Shown one piece after another: positions 600 through 25,756 of a stretch of DNA of 64,000 bases. Numbering within the stretch: position 1 is the first letter of the stretch; the number at the start of each line of letters is the position of its first letter. Under the pieces are notes generated by a model, which was not told the origin of the DNA, made no database searches, and saw nothing but the letters and a program-made list of their open reading frames with translations. Made by a program: the position numbers and the translations under genes. The stretch comes from Shigella phage MK-13: the sequence record MK509462. One strand, written 5' to 3'.

Positions 600-1184
600 T
601 TATAGACCAAATTTAGTACGCCACTTTTCAACTTTGTGTTCAATAGCGTGCTCTACCTTAACAATAGTGCTTTTGAGATTATTGTTATGGTCGCAAGCCA
701 ATTTGGCTGTGTGTTTGATGACACCGTTCACCAACTCGACCAGATTATCATCTGTTCTTTGTGGTTGATTGAGCAACCTGGTAATGCGACCTTTGTAGTG
801 GTTGATCATCGCCATTTGCTTGTCGAGACTATCAACCCCACCACAGAACCAGTAATCTTCCAGGGTGTGTTGTGTAAGATCACTTGTTCGGTTAGCCTGT
901 GACAGAGAGAATATCAATGAATCGAATATCTCGTCTTTGGTCATAGAACCGTGTTGTTGAGTATGCTGGTAGTCGCAAACATACAGCAAGTCCAGAGCAG
1001 AGATAATAACGTCAGCCACTTCACCGTTTAAAGGTTCTGACCCAGCGATACCATACAACACATCAGACAGTTCGCAAGTTTCTTCAACGAGTTTGCAATA
1101 CACAAAAAAGGATGGTCGATTTGGCGTAATCTGGCTCAGTTCGTATGATGTTTCTAACACACGACGAATAAAATTCATTTTCAT
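600..1184 (-). CDS. MazG-like all-alpha NTP pyrophosphohydrolase (candidate dNTPase)
   Basis: 194-aa ORF with EExxEL-like (KLVEETCELSD) and ExxDv (EVADVIISALDLL) motifs typical of MazG/HisE-type NTP-PPases. Confidence 0.45.
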   Translation of the reverse strand: MKMNFIRRVLETSYELSQITPNRPSFFVYCKLVEETCELSDVLYGIAGSEPLNGEVADVIISALDLLYVCDYQHTQQHGSMTKDEIFDSLIFSLSQANRTSDLTQHTLEDYWFCGGVDSLDKQMAMINHYKGRITRLLNQPQRTDDNLVELVNGVIKHTAKLACDHNNNLKSTIVKVEHAIEHKVEKWRTKFGL

Positions 1185-1684
1185 TTCAGAGTTCCTTGTA
1201 TACGGATACGATTAATGTGTGCAATGATATAGTCCATAGAGGTTTGAAAACTATATTTCCCGTTCCGAACGTATGCATGGATCAGAGGGAGTCGACTGTA
1301 CGCCAATCTGATCTTCAGCAGGTCGGGCATTGTCTGGAGTTTCATGCTGGTGGCAAACAGAATGTCCCGCTTGAATTCTTCGGATGATGGATCAAGGACA
1401 GCGATGCGAGTGGCCGCCAACCCCTGCCCATATTGCTTGGCTTCGTAGCCGTCGAGCAAGCGCAGGTTGTCATCCCTGTACTTTAGCCAATACCAGTAGC
1501 CTTCCATGGAGTTGAACACGCCGTGCTCATAGGTAGTCACTGGATGATGGGCAAAATGCGAGAGGAAGCGCCCGAGTTCCGTTTGGCTCTGGCTGTAGAT
1601 GTTGAAGTGATTCTTACCCTCTGTTTCAGGGGTCATCTTGTTCTGTGGAACGCTCATTAACAGCATCATGATGTAGTTTCTCAA
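1181..1684 (-). CDS. hypothetical protein (167 aa)
   Basis: Long minus-strand ORF, stop overlaps the downstream start (ATGA-type); no motif recognised. Confidence 0.55.
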   Translation of the reverse strand: MRNYIMMLLMSVPQNKMTPETEGKNHFNIYSQSQTELGRFLSHFAHHPVTTYEHGVFNSMEGYWYWLKYRDDNLRLLDGYEAKQYGQGLAATRIAVLDPSSEEFKRDILFATSMKLQTMPDLLKIRLAYSRLPLIHAYVRNGKYSFQTSMDYIIAHINRIRIQGTLK

Positions 1685-1711
1685 ATCAAAGTATTGCTGT
1701 GTGCAGCCAGT

Positions 1712-1909
1712 TTATTTCTTCACACACCCCAAATAGGAGCAGAGTAAACCGACAGCAGAAAATATAATGGCAAGTAGGTAACGAGTCACCTGCATTTGTG
1801 ATGTTGTAAGCAGGCTGACAACGCTTTCGAGCGCCAGGAACAAACAAACTCCAGCGACTACACCGAACTTGAACGAATTACGTTCTCTGTTAATTCTGAA
1901 CTTGTACAT
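1712..1909 (-). CDS. small hydrophobic membrane protein (65 aa)
   Basis: ORF with two hydrophobic segments; same strand as neighbours. Confidence 0.4.
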   Translation of the reverse strand: MYKFRINRERNSFKFGVVAGVCLFLALESVVSLLTTSQMQVTRYLLAIIFSAVGLLCSYLGCVKK

Positions 1910-1958
1910 TGTGCGCCTCCTGTTAGGGAAATAGGGGAGTTTCCTCCCCTGTAACTAT

Positions 1959-2459
1959 CTAGCCCAGAAACACTACTAAAGTCAAATTTGTGAAAGCACT
2001 GCGGCTATTGCGCAACATTTCATGGGCGGCAGCCAAGCGTTTCGGATCATGAAGTGTATCAGAGAACACGATGATGTTTGCTTTATCGATACCCGTGCCC
2101 ATGTAATGGGAGATGGTTGTCGTGTGCTGTTTCTTGTCTACATCGGGTGGCGGTACATCCGCGCCTGCTCGGGAGTGGAAGAAATAATCGCGTTCACGAA
2201 CGCTATGGAAGACGCCCATGATGTTGAGGTTGTTCTCTGTCTGGAAATCATAGGACAGAATCTTCTTCAGCGCGGCGGTATGCCCAGTCTGGCGCAGCAT
2301 GCGATAGTACAGTATGTTTCCAGGACAGGTGGGGTCCGTCACGCCTCCCCTCGATTGGCGATCTTTCTGGATTTCATACGCATCCAGGATAAGTTGTTGG
2401 ACCATTCCAATATGGGCAGTCAGGGAGATTTCTACTTTACGCTTGATCATGGATTTCAT
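1959..2459 (-). CDS. hypothetical protein (166 aa)
   Basis: Minus-strand ORF in the co-directional gene block. Confidence 0.5.
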   Translation of the reverse strand: MKSMIKRKVEISLTAHIGMVQQLILDAYEIQKDRQSRGGVTDPTCPGNILYYRMLRQTGHTAALKKILSYDFQTENNLNIMGVFHSVRERDYFFHSRAGADVPPPDVDKKQHTTTISHYMGTGIDKANIIVFSDTLHDPKRLAAAHEMLRNSRSAFTNLTLVVFLG

Positions 2460-4774: not shown

Positions 4775-6337
4775 TTACTTGTACAGGCCAGTGACGTCAA
4801 TAGACTTGTGCTGGCGGTTGTACTCAGCAGTGTAGTCATCCAACACCAGGTATTCGCAGCAGCGGATTTTACTGGAGCCATAATCGTTGGTGATAGACAC
4901 GATATCTTTCGGGTTCAGCTTACAGCGAACAACGCGCTGGCCAACAGAACCGAAACACTGTTTCAGGTAGGCCAGGGAGCACACATGCAGACCGTATGAA
5001 CACAGGTCGGAGTTGTTGTCGTTCACGAATGAGCGAGCCATGCGCACGATAGTGCCTGGTGCGTTGCTGATCGTGTTGCTGTGTTTGTCCATGTAGTTGC
5101 CGCGCACCGATTTGTAGAGGATGATGTCACCATCGTCGTCAATTTCGATGTCGGAGTACGCCATGAACTCATAGATGCGCCCAGACTGAACCAGAGCAGC
5201 CGACGGGTTCTGGAACATTTTGTCCATAAACTTCGCCATGCGGTCCAGGTTGTGGAAGTCACCCTTCAGCATCAGCGCCAGTACACGCTTGGCGATGGAT
5301 GTGCCTGTGATGTCATGGCCAGACCAGCGGACACGGTTGTCAGACACGTCTACCAGACCTTCAGCGTACTTCGCGATGGCATCACGAGGGCGCATCAGCG
5401 AGTATGCCAGCTTCACGTCTTTGTCTTTGATCGCCTGTACGATGCGGTCATATGCTGGATGTGAAGTGGTGATCGTTTCCGGCTTGCCGTCAATTGCGAT
5501 AACAACGCTGTCAGGCAGAATCAGGATCTGGTGTTCGTTCAGGAACACGTCCAGGTCTTTCGCGCCGAAGTCCTGCTTGGTCTTCTTGTCATCAGCCACT
5601 TCTTCAACTTCTTTGATAGCGACAGCGAATTCCACAGAAGACAGAGCCAGGCGCAGGGTGCGGCCGAGGATGGCATCGAAGTAACCAACACGACGACGGG
5701 CATCCAAGGATCCACGAATAGGATAGGTTTCCCCGTCAACCACAACGCTGATTTCAACGTTGCTCGGAACTTTATCCGCACCTTCTGACAGCGCCACAGA
5801 AATTTCTGCCATCTTACCGATAGCTTCAACGCCGAAAGCGCGGCTGTTTCCTTCAACAGGAGTCAGTTCGGATTTTTCAAAGAAAGCCCCTTTGAAATTG
5901 CCGTCGTTAGTGAGACACAGATACTTGTTGTGGTTCGGTAGATATGCCCCAACATACCATTCTGAGTCATCTTTGTCTTTGGCCGTGCCGCCCGGTTGCA
6001 CCTCGAACACTTCCTGCTCTTCCTGCTTGATAGGAGAGATCACAGTTACCTTGTTTTCCTCCTCAGTAATCCGGACCAGCAGAGCGCGAGCAATGGTCTT
6101 GGCGCTTACAGCAAAGAACTCAGCCAGGGCGCGGTTGCTTTCGCCAGCCTTGCTCTTCACCTGAATCTGCTGAATCTCTTCAGTGGTCAGAGATTTCAGC
6201 GATAACGGGTTAACACCGAGTTCCGTGTCTGCAACACGTTGTACAGTCGAGCGGGGTATGCCCAACAGAGTGGCAATTGCGCTCTGGCTCATGCCTGCCT
6301 TCAAATGCTTGAGGATCTTTTCGTCAATCTTGTTCAT
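4775..6337 (-). CDS. rIIB: rIIB-like protein
   Basis: ATG at 6337 (ORF-track start 6424 is TTG); N-terminal HTH-like segment MSQSAIATLLGIPRSTVQRV; C-terminus ...GLHVCSLAYLKQCFG...RVVRCKLNPKDIVSI..DY...KIRCCEY resembles rIIB as recalled; lies directly downstream of rIIA as in T4. Confidence 0.65.
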   Translation of the reverse strand: MNKIDEKILKHLKAGMSQSAIATLLGIPRSTVQRVADTELGVNPLSLKSLTTEEIQQIQVKSKAGESNRALAEFFAVSAKTIARALLVRITEEENKVTVISPIKQEEQEVFEVQPGGTAKDKDDSEWYVGAYLPNHNKYLCLTNDGNFKGAFFEKSELTPVEGNSRAFGVEAIGKMAEISVALSEGADKVPSNVEISVVVDGETYPIRGSLDARRRVGYFDAILGRTLRLALSSVEFAVAIKEVEEVADDKKTKQDFGAKDLDVFLNEHQILILPDSVVIAIDGKPETITTSHPAYDRIVQAIKDKDVKLAYSLMRPRDAIAKYAEGLVDVSDNRVRWSGHDITGTSIAKRVLALMLKGDFHNLDRMAKFMDKMFQNPSAALVQSGRIYEFMAYSDIEIDDDGDIILYKSVRGNYMDKHSNTISNAPGTIVRMARSFVNDNNSDLCSYGLHVCSLAYLKQCFGSVGQRVVRCKLNPKDIVSITNDYGSSKIRCCEYLVLDDYTAEYNRQHKSIDVTGLYK

Positions 6338-6368
6338 CTTGTAGTTCCCACGTTGGTTAACAGGACTA

Positions 6369-9125
6369 TTATGCCCTGATGATGGAATTTGAAATAACGT
6401 CCAAGTAATCCGAAGAATTTTCAATCGGGTTCAGAGCGCTTGGTTTGTAGTTCTCTTTCAAGAACCGGATAACACGGTGGCGCTCGATGGTCAATCGGTT
6501 TTCCCGCCTTGCTTTCAATGACGGAGTCCTCGATATATCAAACGGCGTAAATCCATGAGACCGCAACACATCCGAAGCGTAGCCAAAGATCTGTAGCATC
6601 TGATGTTCTGAACGGAAGATCTTTTCGTCACGCTCGTTGGCGTACAAATTCACGTTAAGAGAATGTATTGTGTCCTGGAAATGGCTAAAGCGGCGCTTGT
6701 CATTGATTGAAACCGGGGCTTTCGCCAGGCTTTGGTAATGACGTACAGTCTGCTCATCCAAGATATCGTCCACGACTTTCATTAACTTGTTGTAACGGCT
6801 GACCAATTTGCCATAACGATCGTCTTCAACATCACCAAACGCCTGGTGAACCAGACGGCTCCCGTATTTTAAACGATCCGCCCCAAGGCGCATGCGGCGG
6901 TATGATTCCAGTATGCGCCTGGCGCTATCGCGCTCCAACATAGGCTTCACGTTTTCCAACATGATCTTCAGGATTTCATCGATCGGGATGAAGACTTCTG
7001 GGAACTTCTTCATCATTGGCACGGATTTACGGCGAGCCAGGAAGATCCTTCTGTGAACGTTCAGTATGTCGCTGATATACACTGGCTTGCCTTCATCGTC
7101 AACACTGACTGCGTGCTCGTACAGAGATTTACGAATACCCCGAGCCGCCGCCGTCGTCAACGTTCTGTCCATCACCTGATGGATACACTCATGGCCGGAC
7201 ACCTCAATGTAGACGATGCGCTCGCCCTTGTTGATAATATCTGAGATCTGGTCGCCCGTCAGTTCTTCTTGCAGGCAGATATCGAAGTTGCTGGATGTGA
7301 ACGGAAACAGGCCAGGGTCTTTGGTGACCGGAGGCGTGACATACGTCAGTTCGTTCATGAACTTGACTTCAGCAGGCTCCAGCACCGCACTCAGCCAATC
7401 GACGAACTTGTCAGCGAAGCACAGATAATCAACCGTCGTTTCTTCTTTACCAATCCAAGTTTCAAAGAAATCATAGAGAGCCTGAGAATTATTGAACGCA
7501 GGGTTGTCCTTAGATTGGTTGCGCTTGGTGACATAGGATGTGTTCGGCTTGGCCACGATGACCATCGTTCCTGTATCTTTCAGCTGCTTGATCTTCAGAT
7601 TACGTGCACGAACACTATCTTCGATCACCACAGTAACGTGCTGTCCACGATCAATCCACTTCTGGATTTCTGAAATGGTCAGGGTACTGGACTCACCCCA
7701 GTCATAGAAGATCTCCATAGAGAACGGCGATGACAGCTCATTGAACGGCGCGGTATGGCCATAATCGCGATCAATCTCAACAGGCAGCGGGTAACGGTAA
7801 TATGAATCATGGAAGCGCTTGTCCGCCGGGTATTCCTTTTCAACCATCTTACGGAACCCGCTACCGAACATTTCGCTCAGTCTTGCCTTCTCCATATACA
7901 GGGCAAGAGGACCACGCTTACACGCCAACTCCAGGTCGCGCATCTTTTCTGCCAAGATTGCATTGGCGGTGCCCTTAAACTCCTCAGAGAGCGTCTCACG
8001 CGTGAATTCGTCATACGACAGGTCTTCACGCGACGGCGGTACGTTCAGGGAACCGAGTTCGAAGAACGTATAGGACGACGGGAACTTGCTCATGATGGAA
8101 GCAGTGTCCGGGTCCAGCTGGTCCAGGTCAATCGGGTACGACACACCACCCATCACAGCATAATGGGTGTTCCCCTGGCCTTTCGGCTGGATGTACGTAT
8201 TGTTGACCTTGAAATCATAACTGATATCTTCCCAGCTGAAGCGGTATGAAGCGTTCTCAACAATTGGGCGTTGTTCAGGGCGCATAACACGACCAAGACG
8301 GACCAGTTCATCGGAGAATGCAGAGAAACGAGCGTTCTTCACCGGGATCTTCACCGTCATACCGTTGAACTCATCAGTGTCTTCCGGCTTTGGATCACGG
8401 GTTTCAAGATCTTTGGTGATCAGATCAACAGTCGGGATGCGCTTGGCGTTCAGGTACATCAGGAAGCGATGGAGTTTACCGTTCATGCGGCTTTCCACAG
8501 TGAACGAATCCGATACCGCAAATGGTGATTTGGAGCCAAGACCGAATGCCCCAATCTGATCATCATCTTCTTCCTTCGTACTGTGGAAGAGGGTGGTGTA
8601 CAATCCAGGCGTACGAATGATCTCGCCGTCTTCACGACGGAACACCAAAGACCCATTGTAGAACCCTGGAATACCGATGACTTCGGCCGAATCGGGGATC
8701 TCGTCTTCCTTCACGACCATGTTGCCTTCCAGCAGCACCTCATCTTCCTGCGCTGGGATGGCTTCACCGATGATCTTCTCAAGCGGCAGACCGATACCGT
8801 AATCACGGATTTCCAGCCATGGCTCAAAGTCATCAGGCAAATGCACAACAACTCGTGTGCCCTTCGGTGCCAGGTATTTGCTGTGGCGGGCAGGAGGGGG
8901 AGTGAGAGGCGCGTAGTGGGATGCTACCATGCGGTGCATACGATCACGCATGCCATGGGAGTCGATGGCGTTACAGGTGGTTTCACGCAGGGCTGCAGCC
9001 TCTTTGTAACGATACAATGATGAGAACAGAGTCTCAAACATCTTGTCGTTCATTTTGACGTTAAACGCCTGCCCCTGAATGGAAGACGACGAGCGGATGA
9101 AGTGCTCGGACTTGCGCATTTTCAT
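6369..9125 (-). CDS. rIIA: rIIA-like protein with N-terminal GHKL ATPase domain
   Basis: 918-aa ORF; Bergerat-fold motifs RETTCNAIDSH (N-box), DYGIG (G1), IGAFGLGSKSPF (G2); GSLNVPPSREDLSYDE segment; adjacent to rIIB and near topoisomerase II as in T4. Confidence 0.8.
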   Translation of the reverse strand: MKMRKSEHFIRSSSSIQGQAFNVKMNDKMFETLFSSLYRYKEAAALRETTCNAIDSHGMRDRMHRMVASHYAPLTPPPARHSKYLAPKGTRVVVHLPDDFEPWLEIRDYGIGLPLEKIIGEAIPAQEDEVLLEGNMVVKEDEIPDSAEVIGIPGFYNGSLVFRREDGEIIRTPGLYTTLFHSTKEEDDDQIGAFGLGSKSPFAVSDSFTVESRMNGKLHRFLMYLNAKRIPTVDLITKDLETRDPKPEDTDEFNGMTVKIPVKNARFSAFSDELVRLGRVMRPEQRPIVENASYRFSWEDISYDFKVNNTYIQPKGQGNTHYAVMGGVSYPIDLDQLDPDTASIMSKFPSSYTFFELGSLNVPPSREDLSYDEFTRETLSEEFKGTANAILAEKMRDLELACKRGPLALYMEKARLSEMFGSGFRKMVEKEYPADKRFHDSYYRYPLPVEIDRDYGHTAPFNELSSPFSMEIFYDWGESSTLTISEIQKWIDRGQHVTVVIEDSVRARNLKIKQLKDTGTMVIVAKPNTSYVTKRNQSKDNPAFNNSQALYDFFETWIGKEETTVDYLCFADKFVDWLSAVLEPAEVKFMNELTYVTPPVTKDPGLFPFTSSNFDICLQEELTGDQISDIINKGERIVYIEVSGHECIHQVMDRTLTTAAARGIRKSLYEHAVSVDDEGKPVYISDILNVHRRIFLARRKSVPMMKKFPEVFIPIDEILKIMLENVKPMLERDSARRILESYRRMRLGADRLKYGSRLVHQAFGDVEDDRYGKLVSRYNKLMKVVDDILDEQTVRHYQSLAKAPVSINDKRRFSHFQDTIHSLNVNLYANERDEKIFRSEHQMLQIFGYASDVLRSHGFTPFDISRTPSLKARRENRLTIERHRVIRFLKENYKPSALNPIENSSDYLDVISNSIIRA

Positions 9126-13906: not shown

Positions 13907-13935
13907 AATATCCTCACTTTATAGGTGAGGATATT
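13907..13935 (-). promoter_or_regulatory. 11-bp-stem hairpin enclosing the SD of the 13736-13903 gene
   Basis: AATATCCTCAC ...7 nt... GTGAGGATATT; sits between the stop of the 410-aa gene (13940) and the next ATG (13903); no U-run. Confidence 0.4.
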
Positions 13936-13939
13936 TATA

Positions 13940-16626: not shown

Positions 16627-16931
16627 TATACAGCATCCTCAATACGCCAGCTCACGCCGCCCATCCATGGTGCCCAGAATACAGCAACCTGTGGGCGGCC
16701 ATTCTCTTCAAACTTCACTTTATACTGGTCGTCGAAGTTATAGAAGATTTCATCCGCTTCAGAGCGCTGACCGATCTCCACCAGTACGTCATGAAGAGCC
16801 TTGGCTGCGCCGATAGGAGTCGGAGTCTCCTGCTGGCGAATGAAGTTGTTGACATGGATAATCACGCCATCCATATCGCTATCACCGGAACGCTTGTCTG
16901 GGGTTTCCCCAAACTTGGATTGTTCTTGCAC
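16626..16931 (-). CDS. hypothetical protein (101 aa)
   Basis: Minus-strand ORF between the kinase and the HAD hydrolase. Confidence 0.5.
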   Translation of the reverse strand: MQEQSKFGETPDKRSGDSDMDGVIIHVNNFIRQQETPTPIGAAKALHDVLVEIGQRSEADEIFYNFDDQYKVKFEENGRPQVAVFWAPWMGGVSWRIEDAV

Positions 16932-16940
16932 GATGTCCTC

Positions 16941-17720: not shown

Positions 17721-18067
17721 TTGTCTTCCTCAACTTTGTCGTAGCCCGTAGCAACGCACTGTTCTTCGGTACAATCCGCATACAGAACAACAGACGCCTG
17801 CTTCACGTAGGTGGTGCAGTGGTAGGTTTCGTCTTCCTGGATGGAATCGTCATAGTTGCAGACAGTTTGGAGCGGACCTGGGGTGGTGTTATCCAGCGCT
17901 GCATGTGCCTTGATGGTGTCTTCCATCTTGGCCACGGCTTGTTCGTTGGTGAACGTCGGCGCGTCGAGGTCAGGGGTTGACACGACGTCCGCCAGGGTAG
18001 AGCATGCGGTGGTAGAGAAAGCCAGAGCGCACACCAGAAGAATCTTATTGAGTTTCATTTCAATCAC
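17717..18067 (-). CDS. putative lipoprotein / secreted protein (116 aa)
   Basis: Signal-peptide-like N-terminus KLNKILLVCALAFSTTAC with a lipobox-like cysteine. Confidence 0.5.
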   Translation of the reverse strand: MIEMKLNKILLVCALAFSTTACSTLADVVSTPDLDAPTFTNEQAVAKMEDTIKAHAALDNTTPGPLQTVCNYDDSIQEDETYHCTTYVKQASVVLYADCTEEQCVATGYDKVEEDK

Positions 18068-18087
18068 CTGTTTGTCAAAGGGTTAAC

Positions 18088-18120
18088 AGGGGGAATTATA
18101 TCCCCCTTTGGTTTATTGAA
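18088..18120 (-). promoter_or_regulatory. Intergenic hairpin (AGGGGGA-attata-TCCCCCT) with TTCAATAAA flank
   Basis: 7-bp GC stem between the DNA polymerase stop (18121) and the next start (18067). Confidence 0.4.
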
Positions 18121-21120
18121 TCAACCTTTCTTCTTTTGCATCATGGCAAGAAGGTTCACACGACGCTTGTGTGACCAGCCGACCACGTCAAGGATGGACT
18201 GAATCGGGTCGATGAAGGACTTCTCAAAGGCTGTGTGGTAATCCACCCATTTACCCATACCCAGTTCCTCGGGGAAGAACTCAGGATATGCGAAGTAATT
18301 CTGGCCAAACGGGTTGCCATTCTTCAGCAGTACCATGTTGACCTTATCACCCGACTCAATCATTGGCAGGCCGAGGTCTTCGTTCTTCTCAACCAGACGG
18401 TTGTAACCCACACAAGCCTTGGCAGCGTAGTGAGCACCAGAGATGAACGAGCCGTCGGCGGCCACACACTTCTCTATGTCGGACACACCGGATGCCTTGG
18501 CGATATCGTCTACAGAGAGCTTCATGTACTCCTCTTTGTACTGGGAGATGAGCGTCTGTACTTCCTCTTCTGTGCCGAGCAGGATCTTCTCATAGCACTT
18601 GACAAGGCGCTCACGACACCATTCCGGCGTGGTGGACTTACGGGCTTCCAGACCTTTGAACTTGATCTTCGGCTTCTCGTACTTGATACCCTCACTGTCG
18701 TACACGGCCATGGCATACATCTTCTTGGCTCGCCAGACGGCAGCTGATGCAATTACTTCACGCTCCCACACCATGCGCTGTTCAAATCCGTTCATGGTGT
18801 TACACAGAAGCTGTGCCCACTCATTGGTCTTCGGCTGGTAGTTGTCTTTGATCCATTGGTCGATATTATCAACCATAGCATGATGGTCAGTAACATCAGG
18901 CCACAACTGCTTGACAAGACGCTCAATGCAGATGTAGTTGGAGTCGGTATCACCCGCGATGACGAAGTCCTGGCCTGTCGTGCCGCACAGCTTGTTCAGA
19001 TAGTCATCGGTGTAGCGCTTGTTCCACTTGTTGATCAGCTGACCGGACGTTGTGATGGCTTCGGCGATGTTGAGGTTGAAGTACTCTTTGAACCAGACGT
19101 TTGAGATCGCGCCATAGCCCGCGTTCATCAAGATCTTCAGACCTTGCTGTAGGGTCTCTTGAGCAACGCCCAGATCTTCCCACTTCTTCATCACTTCGGT
19201 CAGTGCATCAAGATCGATGTTCTTGTGCTCTTCATACCACTCTGGATCGTAGTAGCGGGACTTCATCGCAGACTCAAGATGGAAGTCACCCTTCGACATC
19301 TCTTTACACCATCCAGCCCACTGCTCGTACTTCAGCCCCTTGGCTTTCTCTACTTTACGGTCGCTGTAGATGCCGCGCATGATTTCAGACAGGAACGACA
19401 TCTTCTCGTTGCTGAAGAACTGAACGTTCGGCGTGAAGGACACGTTGTAGCGGCGCAGGGTTTCAAAGTGGAACTCACCCAGGGCAACCAGTTCATCAAC
19501 AACCTGCAGGCGTTCGTCAATCGCACGCAACAGCTTATCGTGAAGGGCTTTCATCAACCGACGTTTGTGCATCGGTGTTGCCATGTTATTCATCTGAGCA
19601 GCCAGCTCTTCACACATAGCCTCAATGATCTCACGGCGCTGGTGTTTGTCGCCAACGATAGTCTCAGGACCGAGGTTGTATTGCTGGATGATGTGAGGGT
19701 AGAGGGAGTTCAAGTCCTCAGAGAAGACCCAGAAGTAGATTCCTGGTGTCACCTCCATGACGTATGCGCCCTCAAAATCGGTCGGACCATCGTATACACG
19801 CTGGATCTTAGGCACTATCCCCTTCTCATACAGACGATAGTAGCACATGGCCAGCCACGGAGCCACAGTTCCCAGGCCGTCTTCATAGTTGGACTTGGTG
19901 CGGTACGCAAGGACGAACATCAGCTGAAGCAAACGCAGCTTCTGTTCTAGACGCCACACCAGCTTGACGTCCTTGATACCATATCGGGTGTGTTTGGCAT
20001 AGTCGTTGAAGTACAGGTCAAAGAGCGACTTGCTCTCACTGTAGTCCATCTTCTTCTCACCCAGCTCACAGTAAGCAATCCAGTCAAGAGAGTAGCGCTC
20101 ACGGGTGGTGTACGTGTGCTTCTTGTAGATCTGCATATAATCGAGCATAGGACAGCCCACGAACTGATACGTCGTGATATCGCCCTTCTTATCGCGAATG
20201 ATACGCTTCTTGATGACACCCCATGGGCTGAGGCGGTTGGTTTCGGCTTCGCCCAGTACCTGGTTCATGCGCTCAACAAGATACGGGCTATCGAACGTTT
20301 CAATGTTCCAGCCTGTCCAGCCGTCGAACTGACGCTGTGACCAGAAGTCAAGGAAAGATCGCAGCAGATCCTGCTCGGTGACAAACTCCTTGTACTCCAC
20401 CTCAAGTCCACCGATCTCCGCGTCTTCTGGATCGTATCTGAACTTCGCACGATCCTTCGCGCACGGCATACCCCACACCATGAACTTATTGGTCGCCATG
20501 TCCTGAAGCTGGATAAGCGTGATAGGGAACGCCGCATTCATGTCCTGGGTGATCTTGCCATTGCTATCAATGATAGGGAACTGGTCGGTCACGTTGTTGC
20601 TGATAAAGGAACTGGGGAAGTGCTCACGGATGAAGTCATGGTTGGCCAGTACCTGCTGATGGAAGCGGCGGATGCGTGCCTCGCTACCTTTGAACGTCTG
20701 CTGCTCAATAGTCGGATGAGGGAATGGACCCTTGGTCATCTCCCCATCTTTCCACCCGGCGGTGAACACTTCGATATCGAGGTTGGCGATATGGATATTG
20801 GAGTAATCCGGCTCGATCTTCCCAGGAAAGCTGTGGGCGATGAACTGGTATGCATAATCGGTCTGCCCGTAAATGGCTGCACCCTGGACTTCCTTATACT
20901 CCTCAAGGTAGTTGTCGGCAGTGCGCATGTCAGGGAACTTCTTAGAGACCAGGGGTTCGTTGAGCAAGCCGACCTTTTCAACATTTGAATAATCAGCCGT
21001 GGGTAAATAGAGAGTGGGTTCGAATTTCTTTTTCAACAGACGGCGATTACCCATGTCATCTGCGATTCGAATCAACAGGTCATTGCCCCGGCGGGCAACG
21101 TTCGTATAGAAAACGGTCAT
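18121..21120 (-). CDS. DNA polymerase, family B (T4 gp43-like)
   Basis: 999-aa ORF, ATG at 21120; exonuclease motif ANLDIEV, polymerase motif A DLNSLYPHI, motif B KILMNAGYG, motif C VIAGDTDS. Confidence 0.95.
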   Translation of the reverse strand: MTVFYTNVARRGNDLLIRIADDMGNRRLLKKKFEPTLYLPTADYSNVEKVGLLNEPLVSKKFPDMRTADNYLEEYKEVQGAAIYGQTDYAYQFIAHSFPGKIEPDYSNIHIANLDIEVFTAGWKDGEMTKGPFPHPTIEQQTFKGSEARIRRFHQQVLANHDFIREHFPSSFISNNVTDQFPIIDSNGKITQDMNAAFPITLIQLQDMATNKFMVWGMPCAKDRAKFRYDPEDAEIGGLEVEYKEFVTEQDLLRSFLDFWSQRQFDGWTGWNIETFDSPYLVERMNQVLGEAETNRLSPWGVIKKRIIRDKKGDITTYQFVGCPMLDYMQIYKKHTYTTRERYSLDWIAYCELGEKKMDYSESKSLFDLYFNDYAKHTRYGIKDVKLVWRLEQKLRLLQLMFVLAYRTKSNYEDGLGTVAPWLAMCYYRLYEKGIVPKIQRVYDGPTDFEGAYVMEVTPGIYFWVFSEDLNSLYPHIIQQYNLGPETIVGDKHQRREIIEAMCEELAAQMNNMATPMHKRRLMKALHDKLLRAIDERLQVVDELVALGEFHFETLRRYNVSFTPNVQFFSNEKMSFLSEIMRGIYSDRKVEKAKGLKYEQWAGWCKEMSKGDFHLESAMKSRYYDPEWYEEHKNIDLDALTEVMKKWEDLGVAQETLQQGLKILMNAGYGAISNVWFKEYFNLNIAEAITTSGQLINKWNKRYTDDYLNKLCGTTGQDFVIAGDTDSNYICIERLVKQLWPDVTDHHAMVDNIDQWIKDNYQPKTNEWAQLLCNTMNGFEQRMVWEREVIASAAVWRAKKMYAMAVYDSEGIKYEKPKIKFKGLEARKSTTPEWCRERLVKCYEKILLGTEEEVQTLISQYKEEYMKLSVDDIAKASGVSDIEKCVAADGSFISGAHYAAKACVGYNRLVEKNEDLGLPMIESGDKVNMVLLKNGNPFGQNYFAYPEFFPEELGMGKWVDYHTAFEKSFIDPIQSILDVVGWSHKRRVNLLAMMQKKKG

Positions 21121-21199
21121 GTAATTCTCCAGGTTATCCGTGCCGTTAGCACGTGAGCATATTTAACCATAGAGCCATTCATTGACCAAGGAGTTTATT

Positions 21200-21772
21200 A
21201 TGGCAATCCCCCTCGTTGGTATGATCCCAGGGGCGCTCAAGCAACTCTGGAACCTCGGGACTGATTTGATCCAATATAAGCGGGAAGTTGTTCAAGCCAA
21301 ACACGACGTCAAGCTGGAGGCCATCAAGTCCTCCTCAGATTGGGAGCTGTCTAAGATCACCGAAGTCGGCGGATCTTGGAAAGACGAATTCTGGACTATC
21401 GTGTTAGCCGTACCCGCTATCCTCGTCATGACTGCTCCGGTTGTGGAACTGATTTTGTTCCCTGGTGAGTATCATAAAGGGGATTTCATCAAAGCAGTAA
21501 TCGGTGGCCTCCAGGCGCTCGATACCGCACCTGAATGGTATACCTATTCATTATTGACAGCAATTAGTGCATCATTCGGTATCAAAGGCTACAACCACTA
21601 CAAAAGCAACGGGCGAAAAGCCCAGGCTGTGGATGCTCTCAAGCAGTTTGGGGTCAGGGTCGTACAAAAAGATCCCACTGTTGTTACTCAGTCGGGTGCT
21701 CCCGATCTTGAGTCTGCTCCCCCAGCTGGGTCTACTGCGACCTCTGGTGCGTGGCCTAATCTGAAGAAATAA
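21200..21772 (+). CDS. membrane protein (holin-like?), 190 aa
   Basis: ATG at 21200 with AAGGAG SD (ORF-track start 21182 is TTG); hydrophobic segments MAIPLVGMIPGAL and TIVLAVPAILVMTAPVV. Confidence 0.5.
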   Translation: MAIPLVGMIPGALKQLWNLGTDLIQYKREVVQAKHDVKLEAIKSSSDWELSKITEVGGSWKDEFWTIVLAVPAILVMTAPVVELILFPGEYHKGDFIKAVIGGLQALDTAPEWYTYSLLTAISASFGIKGYNHYKSNGRKAQAVDALKQFGVRVVQKDPTVVTQSGAPDLESAPPAGSTATSGAWPNLKK

Positions 21773-21778
21773 GTTCAA

Positions 21779-21804
21779 GGGGAGGAAACTCCCCTTTCTT
21801 TTGG
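21779..21804 (+). terminator. rho-independent terminator
   Basis: GGGGAG-gaaa-CTCCCC followed by TTTCTTTTGG. Confidence 0.6.
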
Positions 21805-21814
21805 TGTTTAGGGA

Positions 21815-22027
21815 ATGAAAGTGGTAAACAAGAGATTGCTCGTCACCCAAGGCGGGGCGACGATAGTGCGCGGAAGGATCTATGAACAGACACAGCTGGG
21901 TGATCACAAGACACGCCTGACTGTTAAGGCTCCCGATGGTGGTTGGCCGACAAAGGTGATTGTCCCAGACGGTCTCATAGAACGAGGGTCGGCAACGTAC
22001 AAGGGAGCAGAGTTCAAAATTTATTAA
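21815..22027 (+). CDS. hypothetical protein (70 aa)
   Basis: Plus-strand ORF. Confidence 0.4.
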   Translation: MKVVNKRLLVTQGGATIVRGRIYEQTQLGDHKTRLTVKAPDGGWPTKVIVPDGLIERGSATYKGAEFKIY

Positions 22028-22122
22028 AATATTTATTGAATAAAGTTTACTTCTTCAATAACTGGCGTATACTTCTAATTGTAGTACGAGCAAACAACAA
22101 TCTGAAGAGAAGGAAATACATC

Positions 22123-22680
22123 ATGGCAATCGAAATTATCGCTCAATCCAAATCAGGCAAGACTGTAATGTACGGTACTGAAGAAGGCCGCTGCATCATC
22201 AACTACGGCACCATCACTGGCGAGTCTCCAGAGAAAGGCGGTCGCTACCTGGTTGAGTACGGTTCACGCCTGCTGATGGTAAGCAAAGTCGATGGCCGTG
22301 AAATCATGATCCCTCGTAAAGAATACTTTGATTCACGCATTGAAGCCATGCAGTTCTTTTTCTTCCAGAAACGTCACGAACTCTTCGTTGAAGCGAAAGA
22401 CGCAGGTCTGGACGATGCCACTGCCGAACTGATTGCCGAAGGTAAAATGACTCTTGAGGCTGCTCTGGGTGACATGGATTGCGAAGCCGAAGCCCATTAT
22501 ATCGAATATTCCGCTTACCAGAATGAATGTGAAGACGATCCTGAAGACGACGGCTTCGACCCTGACCTTCACGGCGGCGAGGACGACAATACTCCTTCCC
22601 TGGAAGTGATCATGGCAGGCGGTCAGGCCGCTTGGGAGTGGCAGAACGAAAAGAACGCCTGGCTGGATTCCCGTCTTTAA
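22123..22680 (+). CDS. hypothetical protein (185 aa, acidic C-terminus)
   Basis: ATG at 22123 in the conserved context AGGAAATACATCATGGCAATCGAA; ORF-track 5' extension lacks an SD. Confidence 0.6.
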   Translation: MAIEIIAQSKSGKTVMYGTEEGRCIINYGTITGESPEKGGRYLVEYGSRLLMVSKVDGREIMIPRKEYFDSRIEAMQFFFFQKRHELFVEAKDAGLDDATAELIAEGKMTLEAALGDMDCEAEAHYIEYSAYQNECEDDPEDDGFDPDLHGGEDDNTPSLEVIMAGGQAAWEWQNEKNAWLDSRL

Positions 22681-22689
22681 TATGATGAA

Positions 22690-22710
22690 GCCCCTGTGGG
22701 GGCTTACTTT
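22690..22710 (+). terminator. GC hairpin (GCCCC-tgtg-GGGGC), terminator-like
   Basis: Follows the stop at 22680; followed by TTACTTT. Confidence 0.45.
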
Positions 22711-22728
22711 GAACTGAAGGACTATATC

Positions 22729-22893
22729 ATGGCAATCGAATATACCGAATCAGAGCACCGGAAGGTGGGCGCGAAATTGGAAGAATTGGCCAAACTCCTC
22801 CGCGAGTACCCATTCTCCGCTGATGTCAAAGAAGAACTCACTCGTGCCATGATGTCTATGGTGACCCTGTTGGCATTTGAAGTATCTGAATGA
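22729..22893 (+). CDS. hypothetical protein (54 aa)
   Basis: ATG in the conserved context GAAGGACTATATCATGGCAATCGAA. Confidence 0.45.
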   Translation: MAIEYTESEHRKVGAKLEELAKLLREYPFSADVKEELTRAMMSMVTLLAFEVSE

Positions 22894-22904
22894 AGGACTA
22901 TATC

Positions 22905-23456
22905 ATGAGCATTCCAAAAACTCCTGTCCGTATCGCTGTTGAGCCTCTGTTGTCGCAGGCCGAAGAAGCTGCCGAGCAGTACGCGAACAAAATCATCAAG
23001 AACGTGATGGACGACCTGGCCGCCAACGGCTGGGATCTTCAGAAGTGCGCTCCTTGGCCATCAACTGTCGGCATCCGAATGGGGCATCACGATTACCATC
23101 GCATGAAGGCAAAGCAGTCTTTGTATATGAGCCTGACTGCCGACAATAACCCACCAACCCGCTCTTATCGACCAGGTGCACCGAACATCGTCAAGGCCGA
23201 TCCAGAGCGCCAACGTCTGTTCATCAAGGAAGCCCGTCGCAACGCTGCACATCAGTATGAGTCTTTCATCTGCAAACTGGAAGACAAGATTGGCGGTCAC
23301 AGCGCGGCTGTGCTGGACGGTTCCCATATTTGGGGGCATTCAATTCTGACCGTGACTACTCCGGAAGGGATCCAGCGCTGGAAGACCCAGACTATCATCA
23401 ACGTGTCGAAGCTGGGTAAACTCTTTAACCAATATCCAACTCGGAAGGTGAAATGA
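22905..23456 (+). CDS. hypothetical protein (183 aa)
   Basis: ATG in the conserved context GAAGGACTATATCATG. Confidence 0.6.
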   Translation: MSIPKTPVRIAVEPLLSQAEEAAEQYANKIIKNVMDDLAANGWDLQKCAPWPSTVGIRMGHHDYHRMKAKQSLYMSLTADNNPPTRSYRPGAPNIVKADPERQRLFIKEARRNAAHQYESFICKLEDKIGGHSAAVLDGSHIWGHSILTVTTPEGIQRWKTQTIINVSKLGKLFNQYPTRKVK

Positions 23457-23827
23457 TGAACAACTTCGCACAGGAACTACAAGCAACCATAACCCAGGCT
23501 CAGGCCTGGAATGCTATGAGCAAAGTTGAAAAAGCCGTCGACATCTTTGTCAAGGAAGTGAAGAAAAACCTTATGCTCGAGGCGTCACGAGGCGTTGAAA
23601 TTGACGATATGGCATACGTCGTTTGTGGGCATACCTTTGACAATATGTTCACGGCATTCCACCAGGCTTACAGATGTTCACACTATCCGTCAGAGCACGA
23701 AATGAAAAAGTTCAAGAAGTTGCTGGGAGAAAGGATGCTCCAGGAAGGTCTGAAATTCGAATTCCGAAAGAATGAGCGAACCGAAATCGTTACCATGAGA
23801 TTCACAGCCCACACGGGCGAGATTTAA
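23453..23827 (+). CDS. hypothetical protein (124 aa)
   Basis: Plus-strand ORF overlapping the upstream stop. Confidence 0.6.
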   Translation: MMNNFAQELQATITQAQAWNAMSKVEKAVDIFVKEVKKNLMLEASRGVEIDDMAYVVCGHTFDNMFTAFHQAYRCSHYPSEHEMKKFKKLLGERMLQEGLKFEFRKNERTEIVTMRFTAHTGEI

Positions 23828-23832
23828 AAGAA

Positions 23833-23857
23833 AGGGGCTTAATGCCCCTTTTGTTAT
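23833..23857. terminator. bidirectional rho-independent terminator
   Basis: GGGGC-ttaat-GCCCC with T-runs on both strands, between convergent genes (stops at 23827 and 23854). Confidence 0.6.
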
Positions 23858-24312
23858 TCTTCCCAGAAGTCGTCATCGTCCCCGACGGCGGCCAGTTCCG
23901 TGTCCAGGTCTTCATCAGTGAACGGCGGTAGTACCCCATTCTGAATCAGATAATCCATTTCATCGTCTTCCAGCTGCAGGTCAGTGGCAATATACAGCGC
24001 TCCGCTGCCCTCTTCGTCCGTCTCGATACTGTACGAAGTGTATGGCACCCCATTCACTGTAATGATGATAGACGTTGGATCCTCGGGATCTACGTGCGCC
24101 TCGAACGGCACACCATCAATCGGCGCATCTTCCAGGAAGGTGGCAAGGGCTACAGCGGCGCGAACAACATCAGTGCCTTCAACGCCTGCATAGATCTCTT
24201 CCGCGCCCGTCTCTTCACGATCAAACAGCTCAATCGTGATACCGTCTTGAACACCAGTCCATACGGGGATGTCATTGGTGTATTCTGATTCAAACAATTT
24301 GGAGGTTGGCAT
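23854..24312 (-). CDS. hypothetical acidic protein (152 aa)
   Basis: Minus-strand ORF, Asp/Glu-rich. Confidence 0.55.
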   Translation of the reverse strand: MPTSKLFESEYTNDIPVWTGVQDGITIELFDREETGAEEIYAGVEGTDVVRAAVALATFLEDAPIDGVPFEAHVDPEDPTSIIITVNGVPYTSYSIETDEEGSGALYIATDLQLEDDEMDYLIQNGVLPPFTDEDLDTELAAVGDDDDFWEE

Positions 24313-24457
24313 GTTGGGTTCCTCAGTGGGTTAGCCATATGGGGTATTTAGGCTTCCCGCACCGCCAGGCCTGGTTTGTACAGGACGATCTCACGGAAAT
24401 ATTCAAGAAAGGTTTCATAGATACCCCACACGGGTTGTATGGGGTATTTAGAAGGGA

Positions 24458-25756
24458 TCAGGAAGGGGTGAAGCCGTTTACGGGTACTGTTTCAGGGATA
24501 GCCAGCTCAGGGCATGCAGCCTTCATTGGCTCGATGTACGGCTTGCTACCCACAATCCAGAACAGAGTGTTCTCATTGAGCAACTCGGGCTTGTTCTGCT
24601 GGATCCAGGTCATGACCTTGCCTTCATAGCGAGGGTGCAACTCAATATCACCCCACTGATAATCCATCAGGTCATTGTAACGAACCCAGTTGGTGGTGTG
24701 AAGATCCCAATGGTGTACCTCAAAACGAGGAAGCGTTATCTCTGGCTCGTCCTTCTGCCTGATACCACTTAGGAGGCCAGCCAGCGAAACGCTCTTAGAG
24801 GCATGCTGAAGCTCCTTCTTGCCGTGGACATAGTCTGGGTTGTCGTGATAACGGCGGGTGAAGTCGACAATGTGAGGCAGATTGGCTTGCTTACCAATGA
24901 TACGCAGGCGGCTCTCAATGAAGTCCAGGCGGTTTGGTCCAATCCCAATCAGATAAACACGCTTCAGATTAGGCTTAGGATGCATCGCCAGCCCGGTCAG
25001 GATGCTTGTGCATGAGTTGCATGATCCAGCAGGGATGATCAGATCGGTGATGTGGTCTGGGATGTTAGCAACCTGCTCGCCACCCAGCATATGGAAGCCA
25101 GCGATGCGCTCTGGGGAGTGAGCCGTGTGGTCCAGGGTGATACCATATTCCAGGTAGTACGCCTTTGGATTCACCTGCTCAATGAGTTTCTTACAGCGCG
25201 GCTGGATCGTGCTGTTGTAACCCGAGCCGACGAAGTTGAACTCACTGCCGAACCAGGCGCTCATCTCAACCATCCCATGGTTCATGCAAGTGGTTGGTTT
25301 GGTCGCGCCGAGTACAGTGGTTGTCTTTCCGCCGAAGTGCCGAGAGACTGCCGTCGCCATAGGGGATTGCGGACTACCAACGACAGTACCGTGGATGATG
25401 TCAGGGGAACCTCCGGCCTTCAGGTGCTCAACCATCAGCCAGATGGCCTGGCGCAACTTACTGCCATTGATGCCCTGCTGACCATTTGCGTAATTGGACA
25501 GCGGTGCAAAGTAATCTTCACGCTTGAACCAGACCTGCTGATTGGTTTCGGGGTTGGCAACGAGTTCGCACGGGGTGTGCTTGTAGAGATAGTCTTCCCA
25601 GTGGATGACATTGCGGTCAAGCGAGAGAGCATTGAAGATAGTTTTGCGGTCGCCCATAAGGGCATCCGGGGTATATGGAGCAAAGATAAAAGGGCTGGCG
25701 TTTTCTTCTATCGCCTGTTTGGTGATATCTATAAGTTTCTGAGTTTTGTCGTTCAT
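24458..25756 (-). CDS. PLP-dependent enzyme-like protein (fold-type II / ACC-deaminase-like?), 432 aa
   Basis: ATG at 25756 with GGAG SD; segment GINGSKLRQAIWL resembles the GGNKxRKL lysine motif of the ACC-deaminase / D-cysteine desulfhydrase family; weak, by recall. Confidence 0.4.
   Translation of the reverse strand: MNDKTQKLIDITKQAIEENASPFIFAPYTPDALMGDRKTIFNALSLDRNVIHWEDYLYKHTPCELVANPETNQQVWFKREDYFAPLSNYANGQQGINGSKLRQAIWLMVEHLKAGGSPDIIHGTVVGSPQSPMATAVSRHFGGKTTTVLGATKPTTCMNHGMVEMSAWFGSEFNFVGSGYNSTIQPRCKKLIEQVNPKAYYLEYGITLDHTAHSPERIAGFHMLGGEQVANIPDHITDLIIPAGSCNSCTSILTGLAMHPKPNLKRVYLIGIGPNRLDFIESRLRIIGKQANLPHIVDFTRRYHDNPDYVHGKKELQHASKSVSLAGLLSGIRQKDEPEITLPRFEVHHWDLHTTNWVRYNDLMDYQWGDIELHPRYEGKVMTWIQQNKPELLNENTLFWIVGSKPYIEPMKAACPELAIPETVPVNGFTPS

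Follow-up and report, generated by a model that had tools for sequence, protein, structure and literature searches.

Orthologues of the ViI thymidine hypermodification enzymes in an Agtrevirus genome, with a polymerase-like C-terminal tail that suggests sliding-clamp tethering

Three genes of Shigella phage MK-13 most probably encode the post-replicative half of the known pathway by which Salmonella phage ViI produces 5-(2-aminoethoxy)methyl-dU (5-NeOmdU), with a HAD phosphatase and a 194-aa protein as probable nucleotide pool editors and with the kinase and transferases putatively tethered to the sliding clamp; a probability of roughly 0.86 is assigned to this reading. The modification system itself was already known, and the one new point is a clamp-type tail shared by modifying enzymes and DNA polymerase. 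The window, meaning the whole 64,000-nucleotide stretch that was analysed (record MK509462), belongs to an Agtrevirus genome (Ackermannviridae, ViI-like) with approximately 96% identity to Shigella phages Gloob and Ag3 and Salmonella phage SKML-39, its section from 13000 to 26000 being 95.9% identical to Agtrevirus phages. The genes concerned are the following:

600-1184, minus strand: 194-aa ORF, predicted all-alpha NTP pyrophosphatase with a dimeric-dUTPase-like fold, orthologue of Vi01_011
13940-15172, minus strand: predicted amino acid:DNA transferase, 410 aa, aGPT-Pplase clade 2, orthologue of ViI gp247
15709-16626, minus strand: predicted 5-hmdU DNA kinase, clade 2, 305 aa, orthologue of ViI gp243
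16626-16931, minus strand: small conserved ORF, 101 aa, DUF7254, between the HAD and kinase genes, homologue of ViI orf00240
16941-17720, minus strand: HAD-superfamily 5'(3')-deoxyribonucleotidase, 259 aa, NT5C family, orthologue of ViI orf00239
18121-21120, minus strand: family B DNA polymerase of the T4 gp43 type (Pfam DNA_pol_B, DNA_pol_B_exo1)
24458-25756, minus strand: predicted PLP-dependent decarboxylase, 432 aa, orthologue of ViI gp226

An earlier note had flagged five of these ORFs (all except the DUF7254 gene and the polymerase), and every one of them is present on the minus strand with its coordinates exact. The single small ORF that it had placed between the kinase and HAD genes was likewise recovered, with a match to Pfam PF23912 (6e-54) and 75% identity to its ViI homologue. 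The five ORFs are real genes and not chance reading frames: hundreds of phage records contain a full-length homologue of each, and they share 79-91% identity with annotated ViI genes whose order and orientation are kept. A tRNA cluster is also found within the window.

In ViI, a member of the genus Kuttervirus, the pathway comprises the kinases gp243 and gp67, the transferase gp247 and the decarboxylase gp226, and its biochemistry has been worked out with purified proteins (Lee et al., 2018, PMC5889632; Lee et al., 2021, PMC8989533). The pathway is conserved across the family, and 5-NeOmdU takes the place of about 40% of the T in the DNA of ViI and CBA120 (PMC11721090). In both of these phages the modification blocks many restriction enzymes. 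The three enzymes of the window share 86-91% identity and the same catalytic residues with their ViI orthologues, and their genes keep the ViI order and orientation with respect to the DNA polymerase, together with the accessory neighbours (homologues of orf00237, 239, 240, 244 and 245). Unlike ViI, the phage analysed here belongs to Agtrevirus, and its homologues of gp67, gp160 and the dUMP hydroxymethylase map beyond the window; as gp67 and gp160 are two of the five genes of the original reconstitution, the completeness of the pathway is taken from relatives.

The kinase had been recognised by its P-loop, which reads G9TSGTGKGT17, and this call is sharpened by a full-length match to the Pfam 5-hmdU DNA kinase profile (PF18747, HMUD2, 7e-161). 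It shares 85.5% identity over 304 aa with ViI gp243, for which 5-hmdU DNA kinase activity has been demonstrated (PMC8989533), and is predicted to phosphorylate the 5-hydroxymethyl group of 5-hmdU in DNA, yielding 5-PmdU. The earlier note had also entertained a split polynucleotide kinase/3'-phosphatase, in which the kinase and HAD proteins would heal ends, as with T4 Pnkp and tRNA repair, instead of modifying bases. The two genes are indeed only one small ORF apart, the DxDxT motif of the HAD protein is also used by the phosphatase domain of T4 Pnkp, and the window also contains the tRNA cluster, but this alternative is not supported and is considered very improbable.

The 410-aa protein, previously described as having no recognisable motif, in fact matches the Pfam amino acid:DNA transferase family strongly (PF18724, ADDT, 2e-61) and is 90.3% identical over its full length to ViI gp247, which in purified form has demonstrated serine:DNA transferase activity (PMC8989533). 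The glycine:DNA transferases PaMx11 gp46 (PUGT) and M6 gp51, also of aGPT-Pplase clade 2, share its fold family at only 19-23% identity and are approximately 120 residues shorter, without the C-terminal linker and tail. The invariant E282 and C287 of the window enzyme correspond in the alignment to E243 and C247, the catalytic Glu...Cys pair of PaMx11 gp46, with 5-PmdU as the substrate in both cases, whereas the nucleophile is the alpha-amine of glycine in PaMx11 and M6 and would be the serine hydroxyl here. The side-chain oxygen of L-serine is thereby predicted to replace the phosphate of 5-PmdU, giving O-serinylthymidine.

The PLP-enzyme-like assignment of the gene at 24458-25756 is upheld by the Schiff-base lysine K100, which corresponds to K92 of ViI, and by 90.7% identity to ViI gp226, a decarboxylase characterised as a purified protein (PMC8989533). 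Its match to Pfam PALP (1.7e-7, 31.3 bits) falls under the gathering score of 35, and no PDB sequence match was found. The enzyme is expected to convert O-serinylthymidine in DNA to 5-NeOmdU. A nucleoside analysis, or other direct chemistry, was not found in the literature for any Agtrevirus, and the product is for that reason assigned by orthology with the Kuttervirus phages ViI and CBA120. This Agtrevirus could arrive at a different product by drawing on another amino acid or by adding a tailoring step, considering that its transferase and decarboxylase depart from their ViI counterparts at about 10% of residues and that clade-2 transferases of other phages use glycine or putrescine. Nonetheless, the 90-91% identity, the retention of all catalytic residues and the conserved neighbourhood make a change of substrate unlikely, and the region yielded no radical SAM, FAD oxidoreductase or GNAT enzyme that might add such tailoring. 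In ViI and Gloob the PLP gene has a neighbour, labelled 'N-acetyltransferase' in the latter, that encodes an ART-PolyVal-type protein and is missing from the window. A product other than 5-NeOmdU is given little credence.

Taken over from ViI on the basis of this identity and the conserved catalytic residues, the reactions would begin with the replacement of T by 5-hmdU during phage DNA synthesis, for which the dUMP hydroxymethylase, the dNMP kinase and the true dUTPase would be supplied from outside the window, and the polymerase is presumed to incorporate 5-hmdUTP. Following phosphorylation by the kinase, Cys287 of the transferase would attack C6 with the assistance of Glu282, the phosphate would be expelled and the serine hydroxyl would add to the exocyclic methylene; the appended serine would then be decarboxylated by the PLP enzyme through Lys100.

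Two further proteins probably act before replication as pool editors. The HAD-family call stands, with motif I (D23-x-D25-x-T27), the invariant K180 and D190-D191 all present, and profile HMMs, motifs and fold identify the protein as an NT5C-type deoxyribonucleotidase, making it a candidate dTMP (or dUMP) phosphatase that would deplete thymidine nucleotides. The 194-aa protein had been termed a MazG-like NTP pyrophosphohydrolase; the acidic signature EExxE-(16)-ExxD is invariant across its family, but the MazG affiliation did not survive, with no sequence match in Pfam or PDB and a fold closest to dimeric dUTPases, and it is now a candidate dTTP/dUTP pyrophosphatase. These candidate roles are assigned by analogy with the Bacillus hmU phages (SPO1, SP8 and phi-e class), where a phage dTTPase/dUTPase and a dTMP 5'-nucleotidase clear away dTTP and dTMP and 5-hmdUTP thereby takes over from dTTP (PMC8989533). 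The suggestion of hypermodified thymidine in the earlier note is accordingly well founded for the three ViI-type enzymes, and is extended more tentatively to this pair.

It is possible, if rather unlikely, that the pathway is limited to the kinase, transferase and PLP enzyme, and that the other two proteins serve nucleotide salvage, house-cleaning or another role and just happen to share the early region. The 194-aa gene is separated from the kinase cluster by 12.7 kb and surrounded by unrelated genes, beside those of the rII region, and ViI-type phages already carry a bona fide dimeric dUTPase (gp63, PF08761). Many phages with unmodified DNA likewise have NT5C-type nucleotidases, PHROG 2643 being labelled an auxiliary metabolic gene. 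Against this, the HAD, kinase and transferase genes are still linked in the distant phages Cygsa01 and D504, where identity has fallen to 33-55% and the flanks are rearranged, and the 194-aa family is confined to Ackermannviridae-like phages (49 clusters). Moreover, dTTPase and dTMPase activities are a known requirement of hmU-type phages, and CBA120 does not incorporate labelled exogenous thymidine (PMC3184105). Pool editing continues to be the favoured role for both proteins.

The new element lies at the C-termini of the polymerase and two of the modifying enzymes:

18124-18159, minus strand: polymerase C-terminal tail VNLLAMMQKKKG, corresponding in position to SLDFLFG, the clamp-binding tail of T4 gp43
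15712-15738, minus strand: putative clamp-binding peptide SLLDLMKKG at the C-terminus of the kinase, preceded by a Lys/Pro/Ala-rich linker
13943-13969, minus strand: putative clamp-binding peptide VNLMALLKR at the C-terminus of the transferase, preceded by a Lys/Pro-rich linker

The clamp-binding motif of T4 is documented (PMC2988020), and the window polymerase, 99.5% identical to that of SKML-39, can be aligned with T4-like polymerases nearly to its C-terminus. A short hydrophobic tail of this kind terminates the kinase, the transferase and, in relatives, the paralogous transferase gp160, and in four phage lineages the enzyme tail matches the clamp-binding tail of the cognate polymerase, with one sub-lineage as an exception. 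Because this docking peptide is shared with the phage DNA polymerase, it is proposed that these DNA-acting enzymes ride the sliding clamp; the similarity suggests that the kinase, transferase and gp160 are tethered to a gp45-type clamp. The architecture resembles that of the T4 clients gp43, gp33 and gp55, in which a variable unstructured linker precedes a terminal hydrophobic peptide that is very similar among the clients of one phage. PhiW-14 carries the same tail type on its homologue of gp33, a second classical clamp client, and the kinases and transferases of the siphoviruses PaMx11 and M6 have no such tails.

As clamp binding is predicted from sequence, the tails may instead bind another partner (SSB, helicase, DNA or each other) or act as shared targeting or degradation signals, an explanation held to be somewhat doubtful given the resemblances above. 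Three Vibrio-type IMG/VR loci (L040-L042) show that the two motifs can come apart, since their polymerase has retained a VNVFSF-type tail and their enzymes terminate in [KR][KR]LW. Basic residues trail the ViI-type tails, in place of the acidic ones of T4, and the tail is absent from the gp33-like and late-sigma proteins of ViI. The clamp was not mentioned in the literature searched on these enzymes, nor were base-modifying clients found reported there, in contrast to the known clients of T4, and the recent failure to reproduce a proposed interaction between T4 alpha-glucosyltransferase and gp45 counts against the proposal. Clamp tethering nevertheless remains the preferred interpretation and, if true, would couple modification to newly replicated DNA.

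The window comes from a ViI-like phage in the genus Agtrevirus (family Ackermannviridae); its base composition is even, with a GC content of ~50%. Over positions 13000-26000 it shares 95.9% identity with both Salmonella phage SKML-39 and Shigella phage Gloob, and 95.1% with Shigella phage Ag3; between the DNA polymerases of the window and SKML-39, identity reaches 99.5%. Relative to the reference genome of Salmonella phage ViI (NC_015296) the window is the reverse complement and spans the record origin, the equivalent span running from Vi01_011 (MazG-like) through rIIB and rIIA and from orf00260 to orf00226, and on to the tRNA, baseplate and tail-spike region. The five dispersed genes in which an earlier note had seen a nucleotide modification set were all found exactly where it had placed them and on the minus strand, with a single small ORF between the kinase and HAD genes, as it had described:

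600-1184, minus strand: ORF of the 194-aa protein termed 'MazG-like'
13940-15172, minus strand: transferase ORF, 410 aa
15709-16626, minus strand: kinase ORF, 305 aa
16626-16931, between the kinase and HAD genes: small ORF, 101 aa
16941-17720, minus strand: HAD ORF, 259 aa
24458-25756, minus strand: ORF of the PLP protein, 432 aa

Small neighbouring genes (homologues of orf00237, 240, 244 and 245) are conserved and syntenic with ViI. The identities of the five proteins to ViI were obtained by direct BLAST against ViI proteins from the reference genome, whose accessions agree with those that Lee et al. 2021 list in their Table 1 (PMC8989533).

Several features of the surrounding sequence have also been observed. 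GC-rich inverted repeats of the intrinsic-terminator type follow the polymerase stop (GGGGGATATAATTCCCCC, 18081-18120) and the transferase stop (CCTCACCTATAAAGTGAGG, 13900-13939), and these putative terminators suggest separate transcription units inside the minus-strand block. The ORF at the rIIB position (4775-6424, minus strand) carries Pfam matches to HTH_38 (2.8e-11) and HTH_23 (9.6e-9) in N-terminal residues 30-113; since it overlaps the end of the ORF at the rIIA position (6369-9125), its true start is uncertain. Beside the PLP gene, the ORF at 25826-26524 (minus strand) has no Pfam assignment and shares 42% identity with ViI Vi01_181, against ~90% for its neighbours; in its product a Lys-rich stretch leads into the terminal ...TFMENMMKFLRLFKK (...SFFRRLMDFLTK in ViI), loosely like the putative clamp-type tails described below. 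A SegD-like homing endonuclease lies between the kinase and the ORF at the DUF7254 position in phages RPN242 (L001:7039-7725) and D504 (L009:4517-5200), an insertion absent from this junction in the window. A cluster of four tRNAs, Ile (GAT), Tyr (GTA), Asn (GTT) and Ser (TGA), occupies a gene-poor stretch at 27787-29019 (minus strand); at its gathering threshold Rfam recovers just two of the four, the Gloob annotation differs (Met, Asn, Tyr, Ser-GCT), and the Rfam scan of the window returned nothing besides tRNAs.

The chemistry with which this gene set is to be compared has been described in ViI and its relatives. The modified nucleoside 5-(2-aminoethoxy)methyl-2'-deoxyuridine (5-NeOmdU) is present in ViI DNA, and lysates expressing gp67, gp160, gp226, gp243 and gp247 convert 5-hmdU DNA to 5-NeOmdU (PMC5889632). 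Phosphorylation of 5-hmdU in DNA to 5-PmdU is carried out by gp243 and gp67, purified gp247 adds L-serine via its side-chain oxygen to give O-serinylthymidine (O-SerT), and purified gp226, a PLP-binding protein, decarboxylates O-SerT to 5-NeOmdU (PMC8989533). Activity of gp247 requires a conserved Cys and a Glu close to it, which fits a reaction by way of a covalent adduct at C6 and an intermediate with an exocyclic methylene (PMC8989533), and the crystal structure of the related PaMx11 gp46 has an active site with E243, T244 and C247 (PMC11472151). According to a 2024 review, 5-NeOmdU takes the place of ~40% of T in Vi01 and CBA120, and conservation of the modification genes extends across Ackermannviridae (PMC11721090). 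The pathway shields phage DNA from many restriction enzymes, a property relevant to therapy, biocontrol, cloning and sequencing.

Within the window, three core genes of this pathway are found. The kinase matches the Pfam family PF18747 (HMUD2, '5-hmdU DNA kinase 2') at 534.7 bits (cut-off 25, E 7e-161), its residues 1-304 covering profile positions 1-298 of 298 and thus the full length, and it is 85.5% identical to ViI gp243, with which it shares the P-loop (Walker A) G9TSGTGKGT17, a GKG variant rather than GK[ST]. An ATP-dependent phosphorylation of 5-hmdU in DNA, demonstrated for gp243 (PMC8989533), would be expected from this degree of identity. The 410-aa protein, in which the earlier note had recognised no motif, matches PF18724 (amino acid:DNA transferase/aGPT-Pplase clade 2) at 208 bits (cut-off 26.2, E 2e-61) and is 90.3% identical to ViI gp247 over its full length. 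In an alignment of seven transferases (window, ViI, Cygsa01, D504, Bane2, PaMx11 gp46 and M6 gp51) its E282 and C287 do not vary and correspond to E243 and C247 of PaMx11 gp46; mutations of the equivalent Cys and Glu abolish activity in gp247 and M6 gp51. Serine, O-linked as in gp247, is the donor that so close a homologue probably uses. The PLP protein has an E value of 1.7e-7 to PF00291 (PALP, fold-type II PLP enzymes) at 31.3 bits, below the gathering score of 35, and no match in a PDB sequence search. It is 90.7% identical to ViI gp226 over 409 aa and occupies the equivalent genomic position, and its Schiff-base lysine K100 aligns with K92 of gp226 in the identical context GINGSKLRQ.

Several other ViI proteins have no match in the window in tblastn searches at E < 1e-3: the thymidylate-synthase-like dUMP hydroxymethylase (gp66), the dNMP kinase (gp65), the dimeric dUTPase (gp63, PF08761), kinase 1 (gp67, PF18748), aGPT-Pplase 1 (gp160, PF18723), the 'MazG-like' protein gp161 and the dCMP deaminase. 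On the ViI map all of these genes lie beyond the 64-kb window, and a Pfam search of 30 further ORFs (1181-27113) gave no other nucleotide-metabolism domain save the family-B DNA polymerase. The system is therefore one already known, another Agtrevirus copy of the ViI 5-NeOmdU pathway of which only three core genes fall inside the window. The literature search found no direct nucleoside chemistry on any Agtrevirus, so 5-NeOmdU is here a product that we infer. As such, the gene set is a re-identification of a known Ackermannviridae pathway and changes nothing.

Of the two interpretations in the earlier note, hypermodified thymidine has held up. The second, prompted by the pairing of a kinase with a HAD phosphatase, was a split polynucleotide kinase/phosphatase; neither a Pnkp-type kinase nor a 3'-phosphatase was recovered, and both the Pfam and the fold results speak against it. 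An acetylation step as in PaMx11, suggested by a 'putative N-acetyltransferase' of Gloob, was likewise rejected. This protein (Gloob gp182) and its ViI homologue (Vi01_183), encoded by a gene of ~150 aa that is flanked by the PLP decarboxylase gene and the homologue of Vi01_184, match PF18760 ART-PolyVal (ADP-ribosyltransferase), not GNAT. The gene is absent from the window, where 145 bp separate the neighbours (gap 24313-24457, after 23854-24312).

Public records of these genes call for correction, a use that the present assignments can serve. The kinase is mislabelled 'guanylate kinase' in RefSeq and PHROGs and 'homing endonuclease' in Gloob, and the label 'terminase small subunit' is attached to ViI gp67, PaMx11 gp49 and M6 gp54. 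The transferase appears as a 'hypothetical protein', and the PLP enzyme of M6 has been named 'threonine dehydratase'.

The 194-aa protein and the HAD protein have been considered as possible editors of the nucleotide pool. The former has no Pfam family and no PDB sequence match even at E 10, and its sole profile match is PHROG 1247 ('MazG-like', profile positions 126-236 of 444), so that no sequence profile places it in strict MazG or in any all-alpha NTP-PPase family. It is 87% identical to ViI Vi01_011 and belongs to a family of 49 clusters, all Ackermannviridae-like and without a Pfam domain. The EExxE...ExxD arrangement is the metal-binding signature of all-alpha NTP pyrophosphatases. It is present here, E34-E35-x-x-E38 followed by E55-x-x-D58 being invariant among 22 members, as are E85 and D88. 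The AlphaFold model (pLDDT 91.6, pTM 0.90) is confident, with eight helices, and structurally similar to solved members of the all-alpha NTP-PPase/dimeric dUTPase group. Going by this model, the protein is a divergent dUTPase_2-fold pyrophosphatase, and the label 'MazG-like' used in the earlier note was imprecise, applying at superfamily level only. ViI-type genomes also encode a canonical dUTPase_2 protein, gp63, beside which the 194-aa protein is a second paralogue.

The HAD protein matches NT5C (PF06941, 5'(3')-deoxyribonucleotidase) at 34.9 bits (gathering score 24.8), and this domain is precomputed in nearly all of its 63 homologues. The HAD motifs (DxDxT, Lys, DD) are represented by D23, D25, T27, K180, D190 and D191, invariant in 23 sequences; fold comparison places the protein nearest to deoxyribonucleotidases rather than other HAD enzymes, and it is 78.8% identical to ViI orf00239. 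The order HAD, small ORF, kinase, transferase is kept in Vibrio phage D504 and Pseudomonas phage Cygsa01 at 33-55% identity and with different flanks. It has been reported that hmU-type phages deplete thymidine nucleotides with a phage dTTPase and a phage dTMPase (PMC8989533), and that labelled thymidine is not incorporated by CBA120, for which a dTTPase activity was proposed (Kutter et al., PMC3184105). Taking into account these precedents and the kept order of the HAD, kinase and transferase genes, the HAD protein is proposed as a candidate dTMPase and the dUTPase-fold protein as a candidate dTTPase/dUTPase. On this view the dTMPase and dTTPase long sought in enteric hmU-type phages would be the NT5C-type phosphatase and the dUTPase-fold protein, respectively, a proposal secondary to the one developed below.

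Pairwise alignments revealed that the window kinase and transferase each end in a short hydrophobic peptide (...AASRSLLDLMKKG and ...KPSSVNLMALLKR, respectively) after a Lys/Pro/Ala-rich linker, and that these resemble the C-terminus of the window DNA polymerase (...HKRRVNLLAMMQKKKG):

13943-13969, minus strand: transferase tail, ...VNLMALLKR, a hydrophobic peptide behind a basic linker
15712-15738, minus strand: kinase tail, ...SLLDLMKKG, a hydrophobic peptide behind a basic linker
18124-18159, minus strand: polymerase tail, a C-terminal tail of the T4 gp43 type

The kinase and transferase tails are putative clamp-binding peptides, as is ...VNLLAMMQKKKG. The polymerase tail is at the position homologous to the C-terminus of T4-type gp43 (...EEKASLDFLFG), and the C-terminal regions can be aligned. 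In T4, gp43, gp55 and gp33 have highly similar hydrophobic C-termini that bind the sliding clamp, can replace one another and are attached by variable linkers (PMC2988020). Of the 384 ORF frames of the window, 3 have the motif [SV][NSL]?L[LM].[LMR][LM] among their last 13 residues, namely polymerase, kinase and transferase. In ViI it is found in the polymerase, gp243, gp247, gp160, the 70-aa ORF Vi01_049c and one tail-tube protein, where its presence is probably fortuitous. No such tail is carried by gp67, by the PLP decarboxylase or by the HAD and dUTPase-like proteins, and in the siphoviruses PaMx11 and M6 both kinase and transferase lack it. Descent of the three window tails from a DNA repeat, which might account for shared peptides, was rejected because they use different codons and are followed by unrelated DNA.

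The motif was set post hoc, and other lineages were therefore tested. Across the whole genome of D504, exactly 3 of 1,490 frames end in KLW, and these are again polymerase, kinase and transferase; with the looser pattern [KR]LW behind a Lys-rich linker, just two more join them, the gp160 homologue and an ORF of 99 aa immediately upstream of DNA ligase. A tail of the xxDxF type is present in 5 of the 2,264 frames of Cygsa01, the fifth being a small ORF directly upstream of ligase. The tails of Cygsa01 and of Delftia phage PhiW-14 are as follows:

Cygsa01: polymerase ...KASVMDFFS; kinase ...KNVFDLF; transferase ...NDLMGFFQ; gp160 homologue ...KSVLDLF
PhiW-14: polymerase ...VAKLGAFFV; kinase gp37 ...HGLGGFFKG; putrescine:DNA transferase gp109 ...TTGLGSFFR; gp72 ...TTTLAQFAP

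The gp33 homologue of PhiW-14 is also tailed (...TSLGGFAAT), and T4 gp33 is a classical clamp client. The peptide on the enzymes co-varies with the cognate polymerase tail in four phage lineages, the series being VNLLxMM, SLLDLM and VNLMxLL in ViI/Agtrevirus (ViI loci L003/L005), [KR][KR]LW in D504 (L012-L015), SVMDFF, NVFDLF, DLMGFF and SVLDLF in Cygsa01 (L008/L045-L048), and KLGAFF, GLGGFF and GLGSFF in PhiW-14 (L049/L050). In a comparison of 29 IMG/VR loci the pattern holds in the enterobacterial group, and the exception is formed by three Vibrio-type loci (L040-L042), in which the enzymes end in [KR][KR]LW and the polymerase in a ...KKVNVFSFIKK-type sequence.

A small ORF near the DNA ligase gene (70-110 aa, no Pfam match), outside the window, has the tail type of its own lineage in three phages and may be a further clamp client or adaptor:

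ViI, L004:30355-30567, minus strand: ...KVNLLSLMRK, a few genes upstream of ligase
D504, L013:5591-5890, plus strand: ...KTKRLW, directly upstream of ligase
Cygsa01, ~109399-109730, minus strand: ...NSLLDFF, directly upstream of ligase

The tails thus combine a terminal hydrophobic motif, a variable linker and a likeness to the cognate polymerase tail, the polymerases of L040-L042 being the exception to the last. On these sequence features we put at about one half the probability that in T4-like thymidine-hypermodifying phages the kinase, aGPT-Pplase 2 and its paralogue aGPT-Pplase 1 are sliding-clamp clients. Enzymes bound in this manner would physically couple hypermodification to the replication fork, or else to clamps that stay behind on nascent DNA. 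The word 'clamp' is absent from both pathway papers (PMC8989533, PMC5889632), while an earlier mention is possible beyond the searchable literature; the only related idea found was the interaction of T4 alpha-glucosyltransferase with gp45, recently not reproduced.

The tails are the one element of the gene set that might repay follow-up. If these putative clients do bind the clamp, deletion or swapping of the tails would provide a handle to engineer or abolish the modification, and the arrangement would parallel, in phages, the maintenance methylation that DNMT1-PCNA couples to replication. It would offer a concrete, testable way for a multi-step modification to keep pace with replication, and could explain how modification is post-replicative yet efficient, and perhaps also the partial or patterned use of sites.
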